DNA from: a virus
Taxonomy: Duplodnaviria > Heunggongvirae > Uroviricota > Caudoviricetes
DNA length: 64,000 nucleotides
Reading direction: 5' to 3' (one strand)
Virus record (IMG/VR): IMGVR_UViG_3300024348_000013
Coordinates: 46,677 to 110,676 of that record
A model generated the notes under the pieces. It saw only the letters and a list, made by a program, of their open reading frames with translations, did not search any database and had not been told where the DNA came from. A program made the position numbers and the translations under genes. Shown here piece after piece: positions 6,264-63,545 of the stretch (the stretch's first letter is position 1; each line of letters begins with the position of its first letter).

Positions 6264-6887
6264 TTATTGAACGTATGTTACGGTTACTGGAATTGTTTGT
6301 GAACCACCTGTTTCGTTACCATAAACAGTTATAGTTGTTCTGATAGTTGAAGTTAAGGATGGGTTTGGAATAAATTTAAATGATAATCCTTTTGCAATTG
6401 CTGCAGTTGCAGATACATCATCTCCGATAAATACAGGCACTGTTCCTACATCAGATGTTACACCTTCTCCCACAATATCACCTGCTGTTTTATTAGAAAG
6501 GATAATTGTATATCCTAAGCTTCTATTTCCGGCTGGAGATGTTGTTGGTGATAATGAAACTTCACCACTTTTTTGATTTACTGCAATATTAGGAACACCA
6601 AATTCTACAACCGGAATACGAGTTGTGTTTTTTGGTAAAGTTACTAATTTGTATTTCATTACTTGTGTTTCATCAGGATTAGCTTCTAAAACTGGCATAT
6701 TTTTAATTGCCGCATCGTAGTAAGATGACCCTAATGGATGTGCCGGTTCGTATAAAGAGTAATCAATCTCATCATCTGCTAAAGCAAATTGAGTTATGTT
6801 TAAACCCTGTCCAGCTGCCAGTTTTTCTCTACCCTTTTTTGTAAGGATTGCATCGACTGTTAATTCTGTATTACTTAAATATCCCAT
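6264..6887 (-). CDS. structural protein (207 aa)
   Basis: Thr/Gly/Val-rich beta-type composition; lies inside the structural gene block. Confidence 0.5.
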   Translation of the reverse strand: MGYLSNTELTVDAILTKKGREKLAAGQGLNITQFALADDEIDYSLYEPAHPLGSSYYDAAIKNMPVLEANPDETQVMKYKLVTLPKNTTRIPVVEFGVPNIAVNQKSGEVSLSPTTSPAGNRSLGYTIILSNKTAGDIVGEGVTSDVGTVPVFIGDDVSATAAIAKGLSFKFIPNPSLTSTIRTTITVYGNETGGSQTIPVTVTYVQ

Positions 6888-6936: not shown

Positions 6937-9900
6937 TTACTCAACTTCTAAAATTGGTTCAGAACTATCTCTACCAGTCTTATTAACTCTTAGAGTATTT
7001 GGATTAGATACAAATGTTTCAATAGGAGAACTACCATCTAAAGTAGTAGCTGCAGTGTTTTTTGAACCTCTAAAGAAACTATTTTCTAATCCTCTTGTTA
7101 AATCCGAAGTATTTCTATAATGTGTTGGTAAATATCCGTTTACTTTTGTTACTTCAACTATACTACCCGTTCCAGCGTTTATTACTTTGGAACCGGAATA
7201 TGGTTGTATATTTAATTTCGTTTCATAATAAATAGAAGATGTTATGTGGTATCCACCACGTGGGTCACCTTTTCCATTTATTACTATATTATACGCAACT
7301 ACATCTCTTTGTTTTTGTTCTTTAATTAAATCTACTTTAATTCTTTCCTTAACACGTCTACCATTTGTATCAAAGTATGTTCTAATAGCATGTCCATTTT
7401 CTGCATATACACCAAATCCTACATTTTCATAATCACTTTGTCCAACAAATGTGTTCGTATCATAAATATCAATCTCCGATAAAATAGTAGCTTCACCCAA
7501 CCCAGCATCTATTGTAACTTCATTTTGAAAAGATTCTGCTATTTGATTTAAATTATCATTTGGATTGATTAAACTATATAATTGATATGATTCTGCAAAT
7601 GTTTTATCTATTGAAGCAGTATATATTATACCATCATATTGATTATTTTCTCCAAATAAATTTTCAGATAAATTACCATCAATAATAGTTTCATATTGTT
7701 GATTTTCTGCTAAAAATATAGTTGTATCAGCAAAATGAATCGATGTTTCTTGTTGATATTCTTCTCCTGATGGTTTTTTATGAGGAACTTTACTTCTTTC
7801 CAAAAAGTGTGGTTCAATTAATAAACCCGTAGTAGCCTTAACTCTCGCTGGTAGCATTTTTTTAATATCATCAAACATTGATTTTTCATATAGTTTGATT
7901 AAATTAATATATGCGTAAATATCTCTACCATCAAATCTTTGGAAATAATAATTTCTTAAAGAATCTAATTTTGAATAGTTTGGTTTATAATCATCCGATG
8001 GGTCTCCAATGTAATCATCTATATTTAATCCACCAAATGATTTTGCAATATCCAAATTCAATTCCTTAGTAGGCGAGAAAAATAATCCCACTCTATTAGA
8101 ATCAGTTGGCGATTGGTCGAATGCTTTTTTAGTTGCTCTTTGTTTTACTGATAAATCAACGCCAACACTTCCACTTATTTTTGTTCCATCAAATGTATAT
8201 TGGTCTTCAAATCTAATTTTATTAGTTGAATATCTACTTGCACCGCCATCCGGTACTTCCATTACAATTGTTCTATCAATTGCTTCGAACTGATAAGGAT
8301 ATGATGTTATTGGTGTAAATCCACTAGCGCTTACATATAATAGTGGAGAACTATTTAATGAATATAATGGGATTAATGAACCACTTTCATAATCATTACG
8401 AGTTTTACCTGTTTGGAAATAAACGTTGGTATCAATATTAATCATTGATTGCGTTACTGCCAAATTCTTTGGATATTCAAAATCTAAACGGAAATATAAA
8501 TCCGATGTAGATGCCGAAATACTATTACCATTTACCATTTCAGGAAATGAAACGTGTTGATTGAATACATTAGTATCCAATTGCTCACTCCATAAACGGA
8601 ATTCATCCAATGAACCGGAATATTTTTCTCCAACTTTGATTTTACTTCCGTTATTCCAATTTGTATAATTAGATGAAGATACCGAATTACTGAATAAGGT
8701 TCTTTCTTTATCAGCTTGTCTAATATCTAATTGTAATCCATTAGAGCCACTACTTACAGATATACCAAAGAACTTATCATTGAATATTGGTAATAATGAT
8801 GATGAAATCGTATTTATTAAAGTGTTTGAACCTGAATATGTAAATTTAACCTGTCCGTATGTAGAATCGGTTGAGCCACTAAGATATACTCCCCAACTAC
8901 TTCCTGAAACTAATTGGTATTCTCTTGCATATGCTGGCTTTACAAACATTTCAATTGTGTTTGGAACTCTACTTTTATCGGTAATTTTCCAATCCATCTC
9001 TAAATAAGAACCACTATTCATTTTAAGAGCAGTTGTAACGTTATCCATTACTAATTTACTCTTAGTTTCATTGTTATTTATTTCCGGTCCACCAAATTCT
9101 AAAATTGAAAGATTTGATGCAGGGATACCATAACAACTTAATAAAGCGTATACACCTCTTCTAGTTCCTTTATGTTTTAATAAGTAAGGTAAATTATTTA
9201 CAATTCTTCTCCAAACTTCGTATGTTCTTTGTTTAGCTGGATTAGTTTCTTTGGTATTACCATTTGAGTCTAATCCAAATGTATATTCCCATAATTGTTC
9301 ATCAGCTGCAAGGTTCTTTGCATCCCAATTAAATGATTTTAATACATCAAATAATAATTTATCAGAAATACCATCTTTTGCTTTATATCCCAATCCTCTA
9401 CTTTTTTCAATAGATTTAGTATGATAATATATGTTATCAAAATGCTGCCCAACCATTGTAAAGAATAATAAATAACTTGCATTATTTTCATCGTTTACAA
9501 TATATTGTGGAATATTATTTTTAATAAAATTTGGATTGTTATTATCCCAAACTTCTGCTAATTCTATAATATTATTATACCAAGGAACTACACTGCCCGT
9601 ATCGGTAGATAATAATCTAACACTACCACTATATGGCCAAGTTATAGATGTACTATTATTTGTTGTATATAATGAAGATGATGTGTATAAGAATTTTTCA
9701 AATCCATCAAATGCATTTACTAATTGATTTTTTTTCAACTCTTGTCTTACTGCTTCTTGTGTAGATGCAATAGAACCACTATGTGCTTGTGATGCATTTG
9801 AAGCAGATATAGCCGTTTCGTAGGTTTCTATCAATTGTACTTTATATGCAAAATTATCTACTCTTTCTTTTGCTGAACTAAAGTGTACAAAATTATTCCA

Positions 9901-28764: not shown

Positions 28765-29151
28765 TTAACCAACTTTAATGGTTAATTTTTTTGGTTTAGA
28801 TTCCTCTTTCTTTTCAAGTGTAATTAGAAGAATTCCGTTTTTAATCTCTGCTTTAGCGTTTCTACCATCATAATTTTTACCAATAGAGATTCTCTCATCA
28901 ATATCAGAAATTAATTGATTAAAAGGATTTTCCTTATCCTCTTGATTCTTTTTTGCTAAGATTTCAATCTTGTCCTCAAAGCAGTTAATTTCAACATTTT
29001 TTGGTTCATGTCCCAATATGTTCAAAGACATAATTGCTGTATCATCTTTAAATTGTACTGCAAATTTGGTAGGAACATACGTTACTCTCGTTTTAGGTTG
29101 TTCAATTGGAAAAAATTCATCGAACAACTTGTTTAATTCATACGAAATCAT
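28765..29151 (-). CDS. small heat-shock protein (Hsp20/alpha-crystallin)
   Basis: AEIKNGILLITLEKK is the conserved A-x-x-x-nGvL-x-I/V C-terminal ACD motif; 128 aa. Confidence 0.8.
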   Translation of the reverse strand: MISYELNKLFDEFFPIEQPKTRVTYVPTKFAVQFKDDTAIMSLNILGHEPKNVEINCFEDKIEILAKKNQEDKENPFNQLISDIDERISIGKNYDGRNAKAEIKNGILLITLEKKEESKPKKLTIKVG

Positions 29152-29207: not shown

Positions 29208-29255
29208 CTCACTTTGTTACAATGTTATGACAAATTTACACTCACTTTGTTACAA
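29208..29255. repeat. direct repeat CTCACTTTGTTACAA x2 (33-bp spacing) upstream of Hsp20 gene
   Basis: Exact 15-mer duplicated; shares the TGTTACA core with the iterons. Confidence 0.55.
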
Positions 29256-30361: not shown

Positions 30362-30408
30362 AGTAACAAATATAGTAAAAATTTGTTACATTACCAAACT
30401 AAATCCAT

Positions 30409-35327: not shown

Positions 35328-35375
35328 ATATAATTACAAATGTACAAATAATTATCCAATTTACCAAATGTTACA

Positions 35376-39264: not shown

Positions 39265-39547
39265 TGGTATCTTTCCAAGCTTTTTTATATATAGTTAATT
39301 CTTTAATTCTGGGATGTTTCTTTTGATTCAATCGATATATCTCTCTTTGTAAATGTTGATACTTGCCATCTTCTATGGCGATAGATATAATCTCATTAAT
39401 ACTTAGTTCGTCAGATGCGTTTTTAAACACCTTTGGTTCATATTCATCCTTTTCATCTGATAACTTCTTATAACCTAAAACATTTGCTACCCCTACCGAA
39501 ACACCGAAATCTTCCGATACTTTCTCGTAAATCTCTTGTCTTAACAT
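39230..39547 (-). CDS. hypothetical protein
   Basis: 105-aa ORF preceded by a terminator and an iteron locus. Confidence 0.4.
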   Translation of the reverse strand: MLRQEIYEKVSEDFGVSVGVANVLGYKKLSDEKDEYEPKVFKNASDELSINEIISIAIEDGKYQHLQREIYRLNQKKHPRIKELTIYKKAWKDTNGNTTTNTKRR

Positions 39548-39647: not shown

Positions 39648-39690
39648 AAAAAACCGGGCTCGGTATTTAAGCGGACCCGACCCGTTTTTT
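39648..39690. terminator. bidirectional rho-independent terminator
   Basis: A6 run, then GC stem CCGGGCTCGG...CCGACCCG, then T6 run; functional on either strand. Confidence 0.6.
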
Positions 39691-39699
39691 GTCACGCAG

Positions 39700-39800
39700 G
39701 ATTTTCTTAGTTACATGATATTCAGTTGCCTCGTTACATGTTGTTACATATCGTGAGTCGAGTTCACATTTGTTACATATTGTTACATATTACATTTGTG
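39700..39800. repeat. iteron array, locus 1 (GTTACAT / TTGTTACATAT units, about 6 copies)
   Basis: agttacatgata..cgttacatgttgttacatatcg..tttgttacatattgttacatattacatttgtgaac; ends GTGAACTCCGGCTGGGAGCAAGCA. Confidence 0.6.
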
Positions 39801-39882
39801 AACTCCGGCTGGGAGCAAGCACAAAAAAGCCGATGAGCTATTACACTCACCGGCCTAAACTATGAAAAATGAAACCCTAATC

Positions 39883-40092
39883 TTAATACTTACGTGCTAC
39901 CCACTTAGGATAGTTACCATACTGCGCCATTAGCTCAGTTGCTCTACTATCTCGTCTCTCTATCCTACTACCTATGTTCATACTACGACACCACTCTTGA
40001 AATTCAATAAGTGATTGTGTCTCCTCTCTCTCCTTCTCTATACTATGTATCCTATCTATATCTTTATATGCTGTTACTATACTGTTATTCAT
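39883..40092 (-). CDS. hypothetical protein (69 aa)
   Basis: ORF in the higher-GC island. Confidence 0.4.
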   Translation of the reverse strand: MNNSIVTAYKDIDRIHSIEKEREETQSLIEFQEWCRSMNIGSRIERRDSRATELMAQYGNYPKWVARKY

Positions 40093-40290
40093 ACTCTTGC
40101 TGTTTTTATTTTATTTAATATTGTCCGAATTGTTATAAAGAATTTCCCTCCAACTCGCTATAAGCCACAACGTCGTAATTACACGTAGGGACCAATGCCA
40201 TTGAAAGGGATACCATTGCCCTGCTATCAAGCTCATAAGCATATACACTAATCCCGTTGCTACTATTAATGCTATAAATTGTTTCATATA

Positions 40291-40521
40291 CTATGCTTGT
40301 GCGATAGGTGGATTTAATGTAAGAGCTTCTTGTAGGTATACATCCTCACTCACTTGCGCCTCCACTACTGCTTTATCGAATTGCTTCAATAGGGATATGG
40401 CGTGCTTCACTTCCATAAGCTCATCTGCACATGCCCACTTCGGCTTACCGTCCCTTAACCCTCTCAGTTTTTTCATTAATACTACTTCTGCGTGTTCTAA
40501 TACTTCTATTGCTTTGCTCAT
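40291..40521 (-). CDS. hypothetical protein (76 aa)
   Basis: ORF in the higher-GC island; overlaps the next gene start. Confidence 0.35.
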   Translation of the reverse strand: MSKAIEVLEHAEVVLMKKLRGLRDGKPKWACADELMEVKHAISLLKQFDKAVVEAQVSEDVYLQEALTLNPPIAQA

Positions 40522-40927
40522 TTGTTTTTTTATTTAGTCGTTTGTTTATATGTGCCCAACATACGGGCGTTAATTCTCTCTCTGCTTTGCGGGCTGCTTT
40601 CTCATACGGGTTACTACGGTACGTGCCATCAAATTTATAGTACCTAGTCAATATAGGTTGTAATTGATGTTGCCATTCATGCACACACGTTTCAATTAGC
40701 TCTTTGATTGTATCTATATTGCCCCAATATATGTGTAACTCATTATCGTCCGCATCGTACTCACCACATAGACCGTCATCGTATCCTTTACGAATAGTCC
40801 ATACTGGCTGATACTTTTTACGGCGATTCACTCCCATATTGGACCGGCACCATCGTAGAGCCATATTAGCTATACTAACCGTCTTAGCCCTACCCAAAGT
40901 CTTTGTCTTCGTTTCGAGCTTAATCAT
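40445..40927 (-). CDS. hypothetical protein with HExxH motif (possible zinc metallopeptidase/SprT-like)
   Basis: ELIETCVHEWQHQLQP. Confidence 0.45.
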   Translation of the reverse strand: MIKLETKTKTLGRAKTVSIANMALRWCRSNMGVNRRKKYQPVWTIRKGYDDGLCGEYDADDNELHIYWGNIDTIKELIETCVHEWQHQLQPILTRYYKFDGTYRSNPYEKAARKAERELTPVCWAHINKRLNKKTNEQSNRSIRTRRSSINEKTERVKGR

Positions 40928-40955
40928 TTTTATTTCATTTGGTTTATAAAAAATA

Positions 40956-40984
40956 AAGGATAGCGGTCTCTAGCCACTATCCTT
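40956..40984 (-). terminator. hairpin terminator downstream of tRNA
   Basis: Perfect 8-bp stem AAGGATAG/CTATCCTT with a 13-nt loop, followed on the minus strand by TATTTTTTAT. Confidence 0.5.
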
Positions 40985-41062
40985 AGAATGTCGGTGCTTG
41001 CTTTGTAAAGTAATCGGAGAATAACCATTTCTGAGTAACTAGAGATGCTACCAACATATTAG

Positions 41063-41147
41063 AGCGGCGGGATGGAGTCGAACCACCTCATCTGAATTGG
41101 AATATCCAGTGTGCAATACTTTCGTATAACCATTACACCTCCACCGC
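41063..41147 (-). tRNA. tRNA-like gene, type II (long variable arm), anticodon unresolved
   Basis: The minus strand reads GCGGTGG-AG-GTGT-AATGGTT-ATAC...GGTGG-TTCGACT-CCATC-CCGCCGC-T. It has a 7-bp acceptor stem, a D-arm with a GG loop and a canonical T-arm with TTCGA loop, but the anticodon arm does not fold canonically by hand. Confidence 0.45.
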
Positions 41148-41223
41148 AAATAAGTGTTAGCTAATATAACTTAGAGGAATTTTGAGAATAACCACTATGA
41201 AACACGCTAACACTTTACGTTTA

Positions 41224-41529
41224 CTACTTAGTAGCCGTTGTAGTATCTACTGCTACTGCAGTTGTACTATCCACGCTTACTACTGTAGAATCAGTTGCTA
41301 CTGCTTCAGTTTTAGGTGAGCCACAAGCTGCCATACCGATTGCGATAACCAATGACATTGCACCTACCTTAGCGGTTGATAAAATCGTTGATAATCTCTT
41401 AGCGTTATATAATGCTCTAGTTGTGTAGAAATCACGCTTTTGTTCACTTTGAGTTGTTGCCGCCTCATTTAGGTTGTTTACTAATTCAGTTACCTGATAA
41501 TTCACCTTCGTACTAATTTTCTTAGCCAT
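41224..41529 (-). CDS. small membrane/lipoprotein-like protein
   Basis: Transmembrane helix followed by AACGSP and a Thr/Val-rich tail. Confidence 0.45.
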   Translation of the reverse strand: MAKKISTKVNYQVTELVNNLNEAATTQSEQKRDFYTTRALYNAKRLSTILSTAKVGAMSLVIAIGMAACGSPKTEAVATDSTVVSVDSTTAVAVDTTTATK

Positions 41530-41577
41530 GTTGTTTGTTTTTGTTTGTTTTAAAATTTATTGTTTGTTTGTTATACT

Positions 41578-41609
41578 CAAATATACGACAATTATTTCAT
41601 ATTGCCAAA
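41578..41609 (-). promoter_or_regulatory. Bacteroidetes-type promoter (TTTG-N20-TATATTTG)
   Basis: Minus strand: TTTGGCAATATGAAATAATTGTCGTATATTTG. Confidence 0.6.
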
Positions 41610-41625
41610 TTTATTTCACTTTATT

Positions 41626-42075
41626 TTACCACGATGAGCTATAATAGTACTCACCATTCTCATCAGCCAGAGCCTCATTCAGTATTTGGATAGTGTTATC
41701 AATACCATCGTAATACCATTCATCGTATTCGGTCCCACCAAAAAAGAACCCACTAGCCGTAGGTAGTATTGCCTCAGCTGCTGCCGGCTGATTTTTTACA
41801 GCCTTACATAGAGCAAGTAACTCTTTGAGCTTCTCTCGTTCTACATAGTACTCACCACAGTCATCAATACCATTTTGTACATTCTGAACGAACCAACGGT
41901 GAATGTTATTTTGTTTACGCCAATACCCAGCATCCTCAATAACGTATTTTACCTTACGTCCATCGATACTTGCCGGCTTACCAGCTTTCGTAACAGTCAC
42001 TTCGTAATTGTTATCGCCGTTATGCTCCCAATATTGAACATACGTTTTTTTGTTTAGATACATGTCTAATCCCAT
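41626..42075 (-). CDS. hypothetical protein (149 aa)
   Basis: ORF with Trp/Tyr-rich termini. Confidence 0.45.
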   Translation of the reverse strand: MGLDMYLNKKTYVQYWEHNGDNNYEVTVTKAGKPASIDGRKVKYVIEDAGYWRKQNNIHRWFVQNVQNGIDDCGEYYVEREKLKELLALCKAVKNQPAAAEAILPTASGFFFGGTEYDEWYYDGIDNTIQILNEALADENGEYYYSSSW

Positions 42076-42096
42076 AGTAGTAGTTTTATAGTTTAA

Positions 42097-42453
42097 TTAT
42101 TTAGAATTCAAATAAGATTTGATAATCGATGGAGTCGTGTCACCCATACGTTCAGCCAACTCAACGCCGGCAATTGCATCTTTGTGTGCACTAGCTACTC
42201 CTTTAACGTGCTGATAGCCAGATACCTTCAAAGCCTTAGCCTGAATCTTGCCGGTCTCACACCTTTCGATAAATTTAGTTACACTAGCCTCGTCCACAAA
42301 CACACGCGGTTTGTCGATGTTCTTACCCGTCACTTCATATATCTCATATAGGGAGCGGACACCTCCAAGGGTTAAATACTTATTACGTTGGATTACGTTG
42401 TAACCACGTTTGAACCCTTTTAATTTTTTAGCAGATTTTGATACTTTACTCAT
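42097..42453 (-). CDS. hypothetical protein (118 aa)
   Basis: Preceded by a conserved promoter. Confidence 0.5.
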   Translation of the reverse strand: MSKVSKSAKKLKGFKRGYNVIQRNKYLTLGGVRSLYEIYEVTGKNIDKPRVFVDEASVTKFIERCETGKIQAKALKVSGYQHVKGVASAHKDAIAGVELAERMGDTTPSIIKSYLNSK

Positions 42454-42498
42454 AGTTTAAATTTTAGTGTTTATTAATATATCTCTCTCTTTACTTCA

Positions 42499-42530
42499 TA
42501 AAGATACGCAATTTTTCGCACATTGCCAAA
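42499..42530 (-). promoter_or_regulatory. Bacteroidetes-type promoter (TTTG-N20-TATCTTTA)
   Basis: Minus strand: TTTGGCAATGTGCGAAAAATTGCGTATCTTTATG; near-identical to the 43874 and 60449 copies. Confidence 0.6.
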
Positions 42531-42620
42531 CTTTTTAGCAATTATTTTTGAAAAAAGTCGTAACTCATTGATACTCAGTTAGTTAGGTATGTAACGATTT
42601 TATTACATATAACCCGTTGA

Positions 42621-42923
42621 TTACCAAGTAGTGTCAATGTAGGTAGGGGACCCGTCCCATAACTTACCATTAAGATACCATTCGCCCTTCTTTTGATTGA
42701 TTCTGACGAACTGAAAACCATTCAGTCGTTCTTTTGTAGTATTACTATCCCAGCCGGCGTTACTAATCCACGTACGTCCGTCCTCATATCGGGCAGCAAT
42801 CTTATTACCAAATAGTTTTAGGTAGTATATAGTACCCTCACGTACTACTTCGGTATTAGATTTCTTAAAAGGGATTCCTAATTCGAATGCGCTGATTGCT
42901 TCGGTTGTTATTTTTCTACTCAT
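42621..42923 (-). CDS. hypothetical protein (100 aa)
   Basis: Follows the GIY-YIG gene. Confidence 0.45.
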   Translation of the reverse strand: MSRKITTEAISAFELGIPFKKSNTEVVREGTIYYLKLFGNKIAARYEDGRTWISNAGWDSNTTKERLNGFQFVRINQKKGEWYLNGKLWDGSPTYIDTTW

Positions 42924-42924
42924 G

Positions 42925-43239
42925 TTAGTGTGTTGAATTTAGTTTATAATTGTATTTCTTTAGATATTCCGTTTCGATTTGATGTGCCAGAGCTTTACCC
43001 CTTACGACCTCCACAACTGAAACTTCATATACATCTGGTCCGTATTTTCGCATATCATTGTAAAGGGACCAATCTTTGTTTTCTTTACGTGCTCTACTGC
43101 AGTGCTTTTGAAATCTTAGCTTAGCAGAATAGTTGAAAGCTCTCCCAACTGCGGCAGTAATACCGATATACGATTTATTGTTTGTAGTATTAAGTATTTC
43201 ATATATAATGTGATTTCTATCTGAGCGTTTTTTTCTCAT
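42925..43239 (-). CDS. GIY-YIG nuclease (free-standing homing-endonuclease-like, 104 aa)
   Basis: HIIYEILNTTNNKSYIGITAA (GIY...YIG), conserved R and H, and E in IETEYLKKYN. Confidence 0.7.
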   Translation of the reverse strand: MRKKRSDRNHIIYEILNTTNNKSYIGITAAVGRAFNYSAKLRFQKHCSRARKENKDWSLYNDMRKYGPDVYEVSVVEVVRGKALAHQIETEYLKKYNYKLNSTH

Positions 43240-43275
43240 TGTTTATAATTTATTTATAGTCAGAATAACCTATAT

Positions 43276-43311
43276 GCTGGAGGCCGTTTCATCGCCCGTA
43301 TACCCTCCAGC
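43276..43311. other. perfect 8-bp GC-rich hairpin (GCTGGAGG/CCTCCAGC, 20-nt loop)
   Basis: Inverted repeat in the spacer between the GIY-YIG gene and the upstream gene. Confidence 0.5.
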
Positions 43312-43471
43312 TTCTCTTCATGCGATTTTAATATAGGTTATTTAGATGATTTAAAATAATGTTCGAAAATTGTTTTGATAAATACATACCCAACTAATGA
43401 TATAGCTGATATGATAATGGCTTCGCCAATTGTTATATACTGACCCATAGTAGTTTAATTTAATTTAGTGA

Positions 43472-43831
43472 TTAGAATTTTTGTAATAAGATGTTAATCG
43501 CCTTAGTACTGAAACCGAAAACGTTTTTCAACTCACGTTTCAAAGCCGGCTCATTTACATACTTACCATTCTTAACTGAATAATCAGAAAATATACGAGA
43601 TAAGGTAATTGATTCACGACGAAACATTCCGATATACTGAACGATTTCTTTGTACTGCTTTTTAGTACGATACGGTAGGTAGTGATTACGTCCTAAAAAG
43701 TCCGTAAAGGTAACCATCGGCGTACCGGCTTTATATACTCGCGGTTTGTTAGCCGGAATATTAATGATATCAGCCGTAGCTTCTAAACTAACTGATGAAT
43801 AACGTGGGTTAAATTCTTTTGTGTAACTCAT
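43472..43831 (-). CDS. hypothetical protein (119 aa)
   Basis: Preceded by a conserved promoter and a 0.6 kb repeat-rich leader. Confidence 0.5.
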   Translation of the reverse strand: MSYTKEFNPRYSSVSLEATADIINIPANKPRVYKAGTPMVTFTDFLGRNHYLPYRTKKQYKEIVQYIGMFRRESITLSRIFSDYSVKNGKYVNEPALKRELKNVFGFSTKAINILLQKF

Positions 43832-43873
43832 AATGATTTTTTTTAATGTGATATATTCTCTTTACTTACATAG

Positions 43874-43905
43874 TAAAGATACGCAATTCTGCTGACATAT
43901 ACAAG
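43874..43905 (-). promoter_or_regulatory. Bacteroidetes-type promoter (CTTG-N20-TATCTTTA)
   Basis: Minus strand: CTTGTATATGTCAGCAGAATTGCGTATCTTTAC. Confidence 0.55.
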
Positions 43906-43940
43906 TCTTTTAGCAATTATTTTTAAAAGTTTTTTGCTGA

Positions 43941-44300
43941 GTATCAACCAGTTACGAATTCTTTTTTTTATCACATATAACCCACTCTGAATCAGATAGT
44001 TATAACTCACTGGAAATCAACCAGTTACGTCAGCGGACTTAACATAATATCCGTTATATAGATTTTTCCACGTAACCCATTGAGGACCAATACGTTAGCG
44101 ACTTAACATAATATATTATATAAGACATTCCTAACTCATTGATTATCATAGCTTAATGTATACTTTAAATAAAAATGCGTAACGTGTTGATACTCAATAA
44201 GTTATATATGTTTGATTAAAGTTATAATCCACTTCAACTTAAACGGGCTAACGTGTTGATTTATAACCGGTTATGGTTATCATATTGACTATCAACGAGT
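43941..44300. repeat. cluster of short direct/inverted repeats (ATCAACCAGTTACG x2, CGACTTAACATAATAT x2, TAACGTGTTGAT x2)
   Basis: Read directly in the non-coding 43.9-44.4 kb stretch. Confidence 0.6.
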
Positions 44301-44394
44301 TAGCAGTTTTGAATTAAAGTAAAGATTTTTCAGGAAAGTTTTTGTCTGTGCGGCGCACCGTCTTATTCAGTTTGCTCCTATCCACGATTTGGAT

Positions 44395-44475
44395 TCGATT
44401 CACGCGTGATTCACACCGTTACATATTGTTACATATTTTCCTACGGTGATTCATATTGTTACATATGTGAACACG
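44395..44475. repeat. iteron array, locus 2 (TTGTTACATAT x3 plus GATTCA variants)
   Basis: ccgttacatattgttacatatttt...gattcatattgttacatatgtgaacacgcc, followed by gggaggaagcaaa; homologous to locus 1 including the flanks. Confidence 0.6.
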
Positions 44476-44773
44476 CCTGTTTACAATTGTAATTTTTTTT
44501 TTCGGGAGGAAGCAAATGGGTGGGATACAACTTAATTCATTGATACACTTATATAGTGTTTTATGTTTATTGTAGTGTGTAAGTATGTTAATGTTTATAT
44601 TGACATGGTTATAACTTTTACCACTCTTTAACACATTTTACCACTTATACCCACCTGATATAAAGGATTTACTTATTTTGATACATAATGCGTTTACACA
44701 CACTCATGCCATTTACACCCGTTTGTATTGTGTATTCCGATATACGATATGAAGTGTTTTTCTTTTACTTAGT

Positions 44774-60600: not shown

Positions 60601-60670
60601 CATATTATAGCGGTTTATATACATAACTCATTGAAACCCAATAAGTTATAACTCATTGATAATCAACGGG
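60601..60670. repeat. direct repeats ATAACTCATTGA x2 and GGTT(T)ATA(TA)CATAACT x2
   Basis: Read directly; same family as the 42549 and 44138 motifs. Confidence 0.5.
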
Positions 60671-61009
60671 TTATACATAACTAGCTTTACCATGCTCTTT
60701 GAGTAAATATTTCAATTGACCTACCATATTATCTTTATCAGCTATCCAATCGGCGGTAACACATACATCGGTTCTTTGTGAATCGAATATAAAAAAGTAA
60801 GCCGTTTCACGAGGCTGAGTAGATGAATATTGTGGTATGCCGATTCGTTCTAACATAATATCACATTTATCTTTTTTAACACCATCAACCCACTTTTCTA
60901 AATTTATTATGTATGTATCGTTGTGCACCCCTTCGTAGATATACTTAACTGTCCAATCATCGACCAAATCCTTATGATTTAATTTGTGATAGTTTTCTAT
61001 TGTTAGCAT
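60671..61009 (-). CDS. hypothetical protein
   Basis: ORF. Confidence 0.45.
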   Translation of the reverse strand: MLTIENYHKLNHKDLVDDWTVKYIYEGVHNDTYIINLEKWVDGVKKDKCDIMLERIGIPQYSSTQPRETAYFFIFDSQRTDVCVTADWIADKDNMVGQLKYLLKEHGKASYV

Positions 61010-63442: not shown

Positions 63443-63545
63443 TTGATAATCAACCAGTTAGCCAGAGTAGGTTGGGGACACTAGCTAACTGGTTGATACT
63501 CAATAAACTTTTTTTATATTGATTACCAACCAGTTATGAAATATG
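63443..63545. repeat. palindromic operator-like repeat (TCAACCAGTTAGC ... GCTAACTGGTTGA) plus a third half-site
   Basis: aatcaaccagttagc-N22-gctaactggttgatactcaataa ... ttgattaccaaccagttatg. Confidence 0.6.

Follow-up and report, generated by a model that had tools for sequence, protein, structure and literature searches.

Clustered short direct repeats in two non-coding cassettes of an uncultured phage: candidate binding sites, one set beside a conserved block

In several replicons (ori/crr of satellite phage P4 and the plasmid iteron origins P1 incC/incA, R6K, and pSC101), two clusters of one repeat lie a few kilobases apart, and the same initiator uses the second as an auxiliary or control site. 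Related iteron replicons differ in repeat specificity; they have a known adjacent initiator and usually also an AT-rich region and DnaA boxes. Arrays of operators for small cooperative repressors include the 11-bp iterons of ParR/parC, the heptad arrays of omega proteins, and the MetJ boxes. In phage T4, the mapped origin oriE contains regularly spaced direct repeats of 12 nt whose iteron role is still undefined, and the R-loop origins oriF and oriG consist of a promoter and a downstream A+T-rich unwinding element without sequence specificity (PMC3016281). T4-type phages also carry PeSLs, composites of an early promoter and a stem-loop that occur many times per genome (PMC2839356, PMC4122927). 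Here, two intergenic loci with clustered short repeats, designated locus A and locus B, were analysed in a 64-kb stretch of an uncultured phage (IMG/VR record IMGVR_UViG_3300024348_000013), hereafter the window, whose numbering is used throughout.

The arrays are best explained, tentatively and with less than even confidence, as clustered recognition sites for one sequence-specific DNA-binding protein in two co-evolving control cassettes, because the units have a defined core with free flanks and 10-nt phasing, the two non-coding loci co-evolve, and the paired unit was found again in the distant viral contig L003.

Repeat units and the two cassettes

The 11-mer TTGTTACATAT occurred exactly five times in the window, always on the plus strand, at 39741, 39770, 39780, 44426, and 44456. 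The number expected from dinucleotide shuffles was 0.22, and none of 100 shuffles reached five. All exact copies were confined to two intergenic loci with homologous flanks. When one mismatch was allowed the count was unremarkable; the signal therefore lies in how exact copies cluster. Locus A contained the 7-nt core GTTACAT five times (39710, 39733, 39743, 39772, and 39782) and locus B three times (44418, 44428, and 44458), with degenerate units nearby (GTTCACAT and TTACAT in locus A; GATTCAT and two copies of GATTCAC in locus B). All open reading frames (ORFs) of any length in the window were on the minus strand, and on this coding strand the unit was ATATGTAACAA, with the core YATGTAACA; GTAAC formed the core of the unit.

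The units were mostly paired 10 nt apart, with 29–39 nt between pairs, and the inverted repeat GTTCACA/TGTGAAC accompanied the pairs. The preliminary description had reported tandem or degenerate copies of GTTACAT at two loci. The copies are real, but the term tandem array holds with a reservation, as most units form pairs and the lag-10 autocorrelation over each whole locus was not clearly beyond that of shuffles. When 27 distinct units of six genomes were compared, GTAAC was preferentially preceded by T-A-T and followed by A, and these positions were kept while the outer ones varied. As in iteron origins, the units were same-orientation direct repeats with helical phasing in non-coding DNA; at 10–11 nt they were shorter than the classical iterons of 17–22 bp. 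The arrays of ParR/parC, omega, and MetJ likewise consist of tandem short units about one helical turn apart, with number and orientation varying by site; unlike in those systems, no ribbon-helix-helix or other DNA-binding gene was recognised near the present loci, and no partition system was found. The features of the two loci were as follows.

39700..39821, minus strand: locus A cassette, in minus-strand order TGCTTGCTCCC, GAGTTCACA-loop-TGTGAACTC, two ATGTAAC pairs, GGCAACTGAATA, and one more unit
39741..39790, plus strand: the three exact TTGTTACATAT copies of locus A (starts 39741, 39770, and 39780), with extra GTTACAT cores at 39710 and 39733
39760..39805, no strand: inverted repeat GAGTTCACA / TGTGAACTC, enclosing one unit pair
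39819..39856, minus strand: terminator T1 of the upstream 69-aa gene, a 12-bp stem and a T run
39648..39684, minus strand: terminator-like hairpin T2 with a U run, closing locus A; its 5' arm GGTCGGGTCCG is conserved family-wide
44364..44514, minus strand: locus B cassette, in minus-strand order TTTGCTTCCTCCC, A10, palindrome TTACAATTGTAA, GTTCACA, an interleaved set of ATGTAAC and GAATCAC units, and GGAGCAAACTGAATA
44418..44466, plus strand: units of locus B, with exact TTGTTACATAT at 44426 and 44456, GTTACAT at 44418, and degenerate GATTCAT at 44448
44481..44502, no strand: palindrome TTACAATTGTAA and a T10 run (A10 on the minus strand), separating the array from the conserved block described below

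The flank of locus A consisted of GTGAACTC (39798–39805) followed by GGGAGCAAGCA (39811–39821), and that of locus B of GTGAACAC (44467–44474) followed by GGGAGGAAGCA (44504–44514), so that the shared flanks already recognised in the preliminary description, GTGAAC(T/A)C and then GGGAG(C/G)AAGCA, were present at both. Homology was also seen on the opposite side, where TATTCAGTTGCC in locus A resembled TATTCAGTTTGCTCC in locus B. The two loci aligned locally with a score of 41, whereas shuffles had a 95% level of 22 and reached 29 at most, and BLAST found no third copy of the cassette in the window. Judged by these sequence comparisons, the best explanation is that loci A and B are paralogous non-coding cassettes. 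The near-palindrome GTTTACAAATGTAAAC was the most conserved stretch of both loci in the window clade.

Locus A was bracketed by T1 and T2 and lay about 200 nt upstream of the genes for a 105-aa and a 451-aa protein, which had their own proximal promoter-like motif. T1 had the hairpin and the T run on the coding strand of an intrinsic terminator, and a terminator was present at this place in all relatives: in L011 the stem was kept through base changes on both arms, and in the L037 lineage a different hairpin and T run were found. The 3' arm and the pairing register of T2 varied among relatives.

Relatives and evolution of the arrays

No cultured relative was found in the phage collection by DNA or protein, and none in GTDB genomes. 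The 451-aa protein had over a hundred metagenomic homologues, and the contigs of three of them were compared with the window. With a 22-mer taken from non-coding sequence next to locus B, 31 metagenome loci were identified, mainly from freshwater and estuarine samples. Gene order around both loci was kept even where the proteins were only 30–75% identical, and both loci were syntenic non-coding regions in a large family of uncultured phages with promoters of the Bacteroidota type. The primary-sigma promoter of Bacteroidota is TTTG ... TAnnTTTG, the −33 element TTTG lying about 19–21 nt upstream of the −7 box TAnnTTTG. Ten coding-strand intergenic sites of the form TTTGGYAAT-N-TAtaTTTG were found just 5' of genes in the window, with a −33/−7 spacing of 20 nt in all ten. 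No Shine-Dalgarno sequences were found before the start codons in the window. Because the ten promoters fit the consensus and the start codons are without Shine-Dalgarno sequences, the host is probably a member of Bacteroidota.

Locus A contained 4–6 units with the GTAAC core in the window, L009, L013, L018, L036, and L038; in L010 and L011/L012, whose 451-aa protein shared 79% identity, only two or three units with 16-nt spacing were found. Arrays at locus B were present in the window, L009, L018, L028, L035, L036, L038, L040, and L043, and absent from L013 and L010, where only TTTACAAATGTATAC remained. The arrays were mosaic among genomes otherwise more than 90% identical, with changes in unit number and spelling; in L038, a half like that of L009 was joined to a half like that of the window. 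The blastn alignment of the window with L009 broke across the variable part of locus B, whose flanks were 90–97% identical, and locus A lay inside a continuous alignment of 95% identity. In L009 and L013 the left flanks were TGCTCGTCATCC/GGCCTCGTCCC, compared with TGCTTGCTCCC/TGCTTCCTCCC in the window, and the architecture of locus A was found at locus B of L009 and L018. Both findings suggest that the two loci change together and tend to carry the same module. The inverted repeat GAGTTCACA / TGTGAACTC was kept in close relatives, broken in L013, and absent from L010/L011. The palindrome TTACAATTGTAA and its T run were kept in the window clade, and other lineages had a different short GC element and an A/T run.

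At the place of locus B, L029, L030, L032, and L037 had different short repeats, for example GTGAGT/TGCGCA. In the L037/L032 lineage, locus A resembled the reverse complement of its own locus B, with scores of 26–32 compared with a shuffle maximum of 24–25, while cross-lineage pairs of loci scored 14–17; the two loci of this distant lineage thus have a repeat set in common that differs from that of the window. The locus-A equivalents of this lineage (L037, absolute positions 8468–8700; L032, absolute positions 6647–6850) contained 8-nt CACTNNAC repeats between conserved flanks, and their resemblance to locus B included the junction to the conserved block (GGTCGGAT versus GGTGGGAT).

The most distant occurrence was in L003, a 164-kb viral contig sharing four proteins with the window at 32–60% identity. 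Its locus-B equivalent contained a ATGTAACAATATGTAAC ATGTAAC pair and CAAATGTAAAC in the same orientation relative to a block-like element. A 19-mer scan of viral contigs gave eight loci, compared with about six expected by chance in AT-rich DNA by our estimate, and only L001 (the contig of L009) and L003 among them were related to the window. Tandem TTGTTACATATTGTTACATAT was found in L002/L007, L004, L005, L006, and L008, which shared no detectable proteins with the window, and further TTGTTAC-like copies lay nearby in L002/L007, L005, and L006. These occurrences could reflect chance in AT-rich DNA or a widespread site.

As judged from their loss, mosaic structure, replacement, and reappearance in L003 between conserved flanks, the repeats appear to be an exchangeable, lineage-variable module and not a conserved core. 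Conservation in related phages, on which the preliminary description had made its reading depend, was accordingly divided: both loci were kept as intergenic regions, but L013 and L010 had no iterons at locus B, L010/L011 had fewer at locus A, and other lineages had different repeats in their place. Swappable repeats between conserved flanks would be a compact example of the specificity swapping that drives incompatibility or immunity between related phages.

The same pattern bears on an explanation by recombination, in which loci A and B are copies of a composite terminator/promoter-type cassette like PeSLs, the repeats arise by slippage and gene conversion, and the loci serve, if anything, as exchange points. 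The mosaic arrays (the two halves of L038, and the unit numbers and spellings), the alignment break at locus B between flanks of 90–97% identity, and the loss of arrays with retention of the locus in L013 and L010 speak for it, and PeSLs are small terminator/promoter composites that mediate insertions and deletions in hyperplastic regions (PMC4122927). The present cassettes resemble PeSLs as short composite regulatory elements, intergenic, in a region of small genes, and exchanged in mosaic fashion among relatives. However, they differ from them in being built on phased direct repeats, and only two copies were found in 64 kb where PeSLs recur many times, so that they do not qualify as PeSLs. 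In addition, locus A was not an alignment breakpoint between the window and L009, the cores of the units were kept while their flanks drifted, unlike the products of recent slippage alone, and the same pair stood at the same place in distant L003. This explanation is considered improbable; if the repeats were neutral, the finding would be an ordinary one.

The conserved block beside locus B and a candidate role in replication

Two further features define the neighbourhood of locus B.

43832..44764, no strand: largest intergenic region of the window, 933 nt; within it lie locus B, the conserved block, the next gene's promoter, and six ATCAANNNGTTA sites
44517..44705, no strand: conserved non-coding block, 189 nt, adjoining locus B and ending in ATCCCACC

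The block was kept in all 31 metagenome loci with 65–97% identity, long invariant runs, and conserved synteny. It contained four GTG(G/T)(G/T)WA units at 44654, 44644, 44634, and 44624, spaced by exactly 10 nt, as well as TATCAAAATA-like units and a near-invariant ACATACTTACACACTACAATAAA. RNAalifold predicted weak folds on either strand of the block (−4.5 and −7.4 kcal/mol) without covariation, and no Rfam match was found at the loci in the window and seven relatives. ORFs across the block, considered as an alternative, were interrupted in the window and broken by insertions and deletions in the alignment. Because it has no common fold, no Rfam match, and no conserved ORFs, the block is read as an element acting at the DNA level.

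Beyond the block, every lineage had an A/T run and then its own repeats. In 18 distinct relatives (L015, L019–L025, L027, L029, L030, L032–L034, L037, L041, L042, and L044), a canonical TTTGGCAAT-N13-TTCGTATCTT promoter, opposite to all genes, was found 159–228 nt from the block and pointing at it, so that it reads through the lineage-specific repeats into the block. The block, the opposite-strand promoter, and the exchangeable repeat module together are a by-product of more interest than the arrays themselves.

This arrangement bears on a function at the RNA level, in which locus A (from T1 to T2) and the locus-B region would be small non-coding RNA genes whose repeats act in the RNA. The coding-strand terminator and the terminator-like hairpin that bracket locus A would suit such genes, the promoter of the 18 relatives would transcribe the locus-B repeats and the block, and in L032 the sequence of locus A is similar to that of locus B in reverse complement, block junction included. 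The structural results point the other way: besides the negative Rfam search and the weak, non-covarying folds of the block, RNAalifold found only four pairs and no compensatory change in the 3' part of locus A, only the close relatives keep the GAGTTCACA/TGTGAACTC helix (broken in L013, absent from L010/L011), and no recognisable coding-strand promoter lies between T1 and T2. A function in RNA is thus regarded as quite unlikely.

Under the binding-site reading, pairs of YATGTAACA one helical turn apart and the GTTCACA/TGTGAAC inverted repeats would allow one protein to dock. In minus-strand order, the locus-B region consists of the upstream terminator, the 189-nt block, the A/T tract, the variable repeats, and, in most lineages, the opposite-strand promoter, which would fire through the repeats into the block. 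The array-bound protein would control events at this region, most likely a transcript-assisted initiation of replication, and locus A, 4.7 kb away, would be a second, auxiliary site for the same protein. On a primer or a non-coding RNA model, plus-strand transcripts would be expected to start near 39805 and 44495 (in relatives, about 10 nt after TATCTTAA), with a 350–450-nt transcript across the block. The anatomy, the statistics, the synteny, and the evolutionary pattern are observed; that a protein binds, that the plus strand is transcribed here, and that replication is involved are what we infer from them. Within the binding-site reading, a role of the locus-B region in replication is plausible, if on the unlikely side.

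The preliminary description had proposed either binding-site clusters for a regulator or a replication origin. Of these, clusters of binding sites remain the best reading, given the core, the phasing, the co-evolution, and L003; the case for an origin is circumstantial and concerns the neighbourhood of locus B (the block, the A/T tract, and the promoter of the relatives), not the repeats.

Several results weigh against the binding-site reading and its extension to replication. An array was found at only two loci of the window, with the lag-10 result given above, and the missing arrays at locus B of L013 and L010 indicate that they are dispensable there; those at locus A of L010 and L011/L012 are reduced. 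Among the neighbouring small proteins of the window, no Pfam or PHROG match to a DNA-binding protein (Rep, helix-turn-helix, or other) was obtained, and no initiator gene lay next to the iterons among the neighbours inside the window. The 119-aa neighbour gave a weak structural model, with a predicted local distance difference test (pLDDT) score of 63 and no family or fold match. The canonical opposite-strand promoter was not found at locus B in the window clade, whose substitutes TACATTTG and TACAATTG were −7-like boxes only, with the −33 element off-consensus or missing. The relaxed DnaA box TTWTNCACA occurred 5 times in the window versus 12.9 expected, all 100 shuffles having at least five, and never in either locus; in 26 related regions, 11 DnaA-like boxes with at most one mismatch were counted, roughly double the window background, and most regions had none. 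No AT-rich unwinding element was recognised in the block, which had 71% AT compared with about 70% in the window and just a 10-nt A/T run. The cumulative GC skew of the window was monotonic without an inflection, because all genes are on one strand.

Host DnaA had been suggested as the binding protein by 9-mers of the form (T/C)(G/T)AT(T/C)CAC(A/G) in locus B and by a perfect TTATCCACA in L003, which alone had a perfect DnaA box; it was rejected, since the consensus was depleted in the window, absent from the loci, and not clearly or consistently enriched in the 26 related regions.

The gene of the 119-aa protein (43472–43831, minus strand) lay just downstream of the locus-B intergenic region, and its homologues in L020–L044 were 119–140 aa long. 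These proteins shared 30–38% identity, compared with about 70% for the neighbours, indicating faster evolution, and two distinct C-terminal alleles were present in the window clade. As a specificity partner of the arrays the protein was rejected, because its alleles do not go together with the presence of arrays and its structural model is weak with no fold match, which is a further point against the reading.

Compared with P4 ori/crr and the two-cluster plasmid origins, the loci are alike in having two clusters a few kilobases apart, one at a putative origin; unlike there, an initiator, DnaA boxes, and an AT-rich region were not found here. T4 oriE is similar in its short, even direct repeats in non-coding DNA of a large lytic myovirus, syntenic in close relatives (PMC3016281); however, the present units are of 10–11 nt, occupy two loci, and vary among lineages, and the origin is mapped in T4 and a candidate here. 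The locus-B region of the relatives resembles T4 oriF and oriG in having a promoter that would fire into a non-coding element and yield no protein, and in a local transcriptional divergence (PMC3016281); unlike in T4, the block is conserved in sequence and not AT-richer than the genome, and the window clade is without the canonical promoter.

A wider proposal, put forward as speculation and considered improbable, is a family-wide origin in freshwater Bacteroidota myoviruses. The opposite-strand promoter would send a primer or R-loop transcript into the block with its phased repeats. Its firing would be controlled by an interchangeable iteron module, of which the ATGTAAC arrays are an example, that determines replicon specificity when relatives co-infect, and the second module 4.7 kb away would act as an enhancer or handcuffing partner. 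Such an origin would be a hybrid of the logic of T4 oriF/oriG, T4 oriE, and P4 ori/crr; by analogy with these systems it is conceivable, yet doubtful. If the arrays bind a phage protein, or if the block is an origin, they would offer an approach to regulation or replication in this uncultured phage family, which is large and abundant. As an independent system with phased repeats beside a transcribed non-coding element, they could also help with the iteron role at T4 oriE (PMC3016281).

Promoters, candidate operators, and neighbouring features

On the plus strand, promoter-like sequences were found at both loci.

39769..39798, plus strand: promoter-like TTTG-N18-TACATTTG, antisense to all genes, with TACATTTG at 39791–39798

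Within the window clade, no element of locus A was better conserved than the TACATTTG box. Locus B had the −7-like TACAATTG at 44482–44489 and no −33 element. At 35368, the TACATTTG box serves a canonical promoter. Single TGTAACA sites at 30384–30390 and 35369–35375 overlapped the −33 region of the canonical promoters TTTGGTAATGTAACAAAT and TGTAACATTTGGTAAAT, and the site at the first of these promoters (30398) was conserved in L009 and L013.

These observations are the basis of an explanation by transcription control alone, with the arrays as operators for a phage repressor or activator that sets the antisense −7-like promoters (TACATTTG in locus A and TACAATTG in locus B), or insulates or times read-through between gene modules, with no role in replication. 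It accounts for the single sites over the −33 region of two canonical promoters, for the use of the TACATTTG box at 35368, and for the place of locus A, which stands before the next gene block with a terminator on either side. Moreover, CAAATGTA, which is TACATTTG on the plus strand, matches the Bacteroidota −7 consensus and is better conserved in the window clade than any other element of either locus, and the promoter-associated ATCAANNNGTTA (13 versus 1.7 expected) shares the locus-B intergenic region. However, the plus-strand boxes are without a proper −33 element, the spacing being 18 nt compared with 20 nt in the ten canonical promoters, and no such box is present in locus A of the L037/L032 lineage. 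No regulator gene was found among the neighbours with Pfam or PHROG, and the deeply conserved block beside locus B is left unexplained. Pure transcription control is held to be unlikely, though less so than recombination or a function in RNA.

A repeat upstream of the hsp20 gene (28765–29151, minus strand) had been described as related to the unit. The repeat exists, with two copies of CTCACTTTGTTACAA at 29208 and 29241 (29208–29255, plus strand), but its relatedness was unsupported, since it has only TGTAACAA in common with the unit and, in L009 and L013, the second copy is TGTAAT, the shared TGTAAC being lost. On the coding strand it is the direct repeat TTGTAACAAAGTGAG, present twice 33 nt apart and flanking the −7-like box TAAATTTG; it is probably a separate operator of the hsp20 promoter.

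Other candidate elements were considered and rejected. A small plus-strand ORF after GGGAGGAAGCAAATG in locus B had 19 codons and was stopped after 4 codons in L009. The spacing was unfit, by inspection, for NtcA (GTA-N8-TAC) and Pho-box sites. A MotA box for TGCTT was not conserved in L009 or L013. A miniature inverted-repeat transposable element was suggested by the imperfect inverted repeats TTTGCTTCCTCCC and GGATAGGAGCAAA flanking locus B; the L009/L013 type is without such a partner.

The motif ATCAANNNGTTA occurred 13 times in the window versus 1.7 expected, in both orientations, at 42561–42621, 43943–44302, 60649–60673, 63449–63497, and 36625, with six sites in the locus-B intergenic region. 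It fits the E. coli IHF consensus WATCAANNNNTTR. The sites clustered upstream of ATTGCG-TATMTTTA promoters, one class on the coding strand, and were conserved in distant relatives. A 72-nt promoter cassette was duplicated upstream of two genes (42482–42553 and 43857–43928; 76% identity), each copy preceded by a ATCAANNNGTTA site, in a manner resembling the mobile PeSL cassettes of T4-type phages.

The window had a GC content of about 30% and encoded a gp6-like baseplate wedge protein, a primase, Hsp20, a carbamoyltransferase, and many small proteins without known function. The motif ATATTTATTA(G/A) was found 10–25 nt before the starts at 39547, 4926, 18762, and 6887, in the lower-coordinate half with the largest ORFs of the window, and may be a promoter element of a late class. 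Between 38000 and 44000 the GC content was 0.35–0.39, compared with about 0.30 in the rest of the window. The stretch separating loci A and B contained a gene like those of GIY-YIG homing endonucleases (42925–43239), a 160-aa protein with an HExxH motif (40445–40927), and a transfer RNA (tRNA)-like gene. The 85-nt tRNA-like sequence (41063–41147, minus strand) scored 38 bits against Rfam RF00005 (gathering score 29) in a permissive search, and was missed by ARAGORN and by the whole-window gathering search; its length could be due to an insertion or to a long variable arm.

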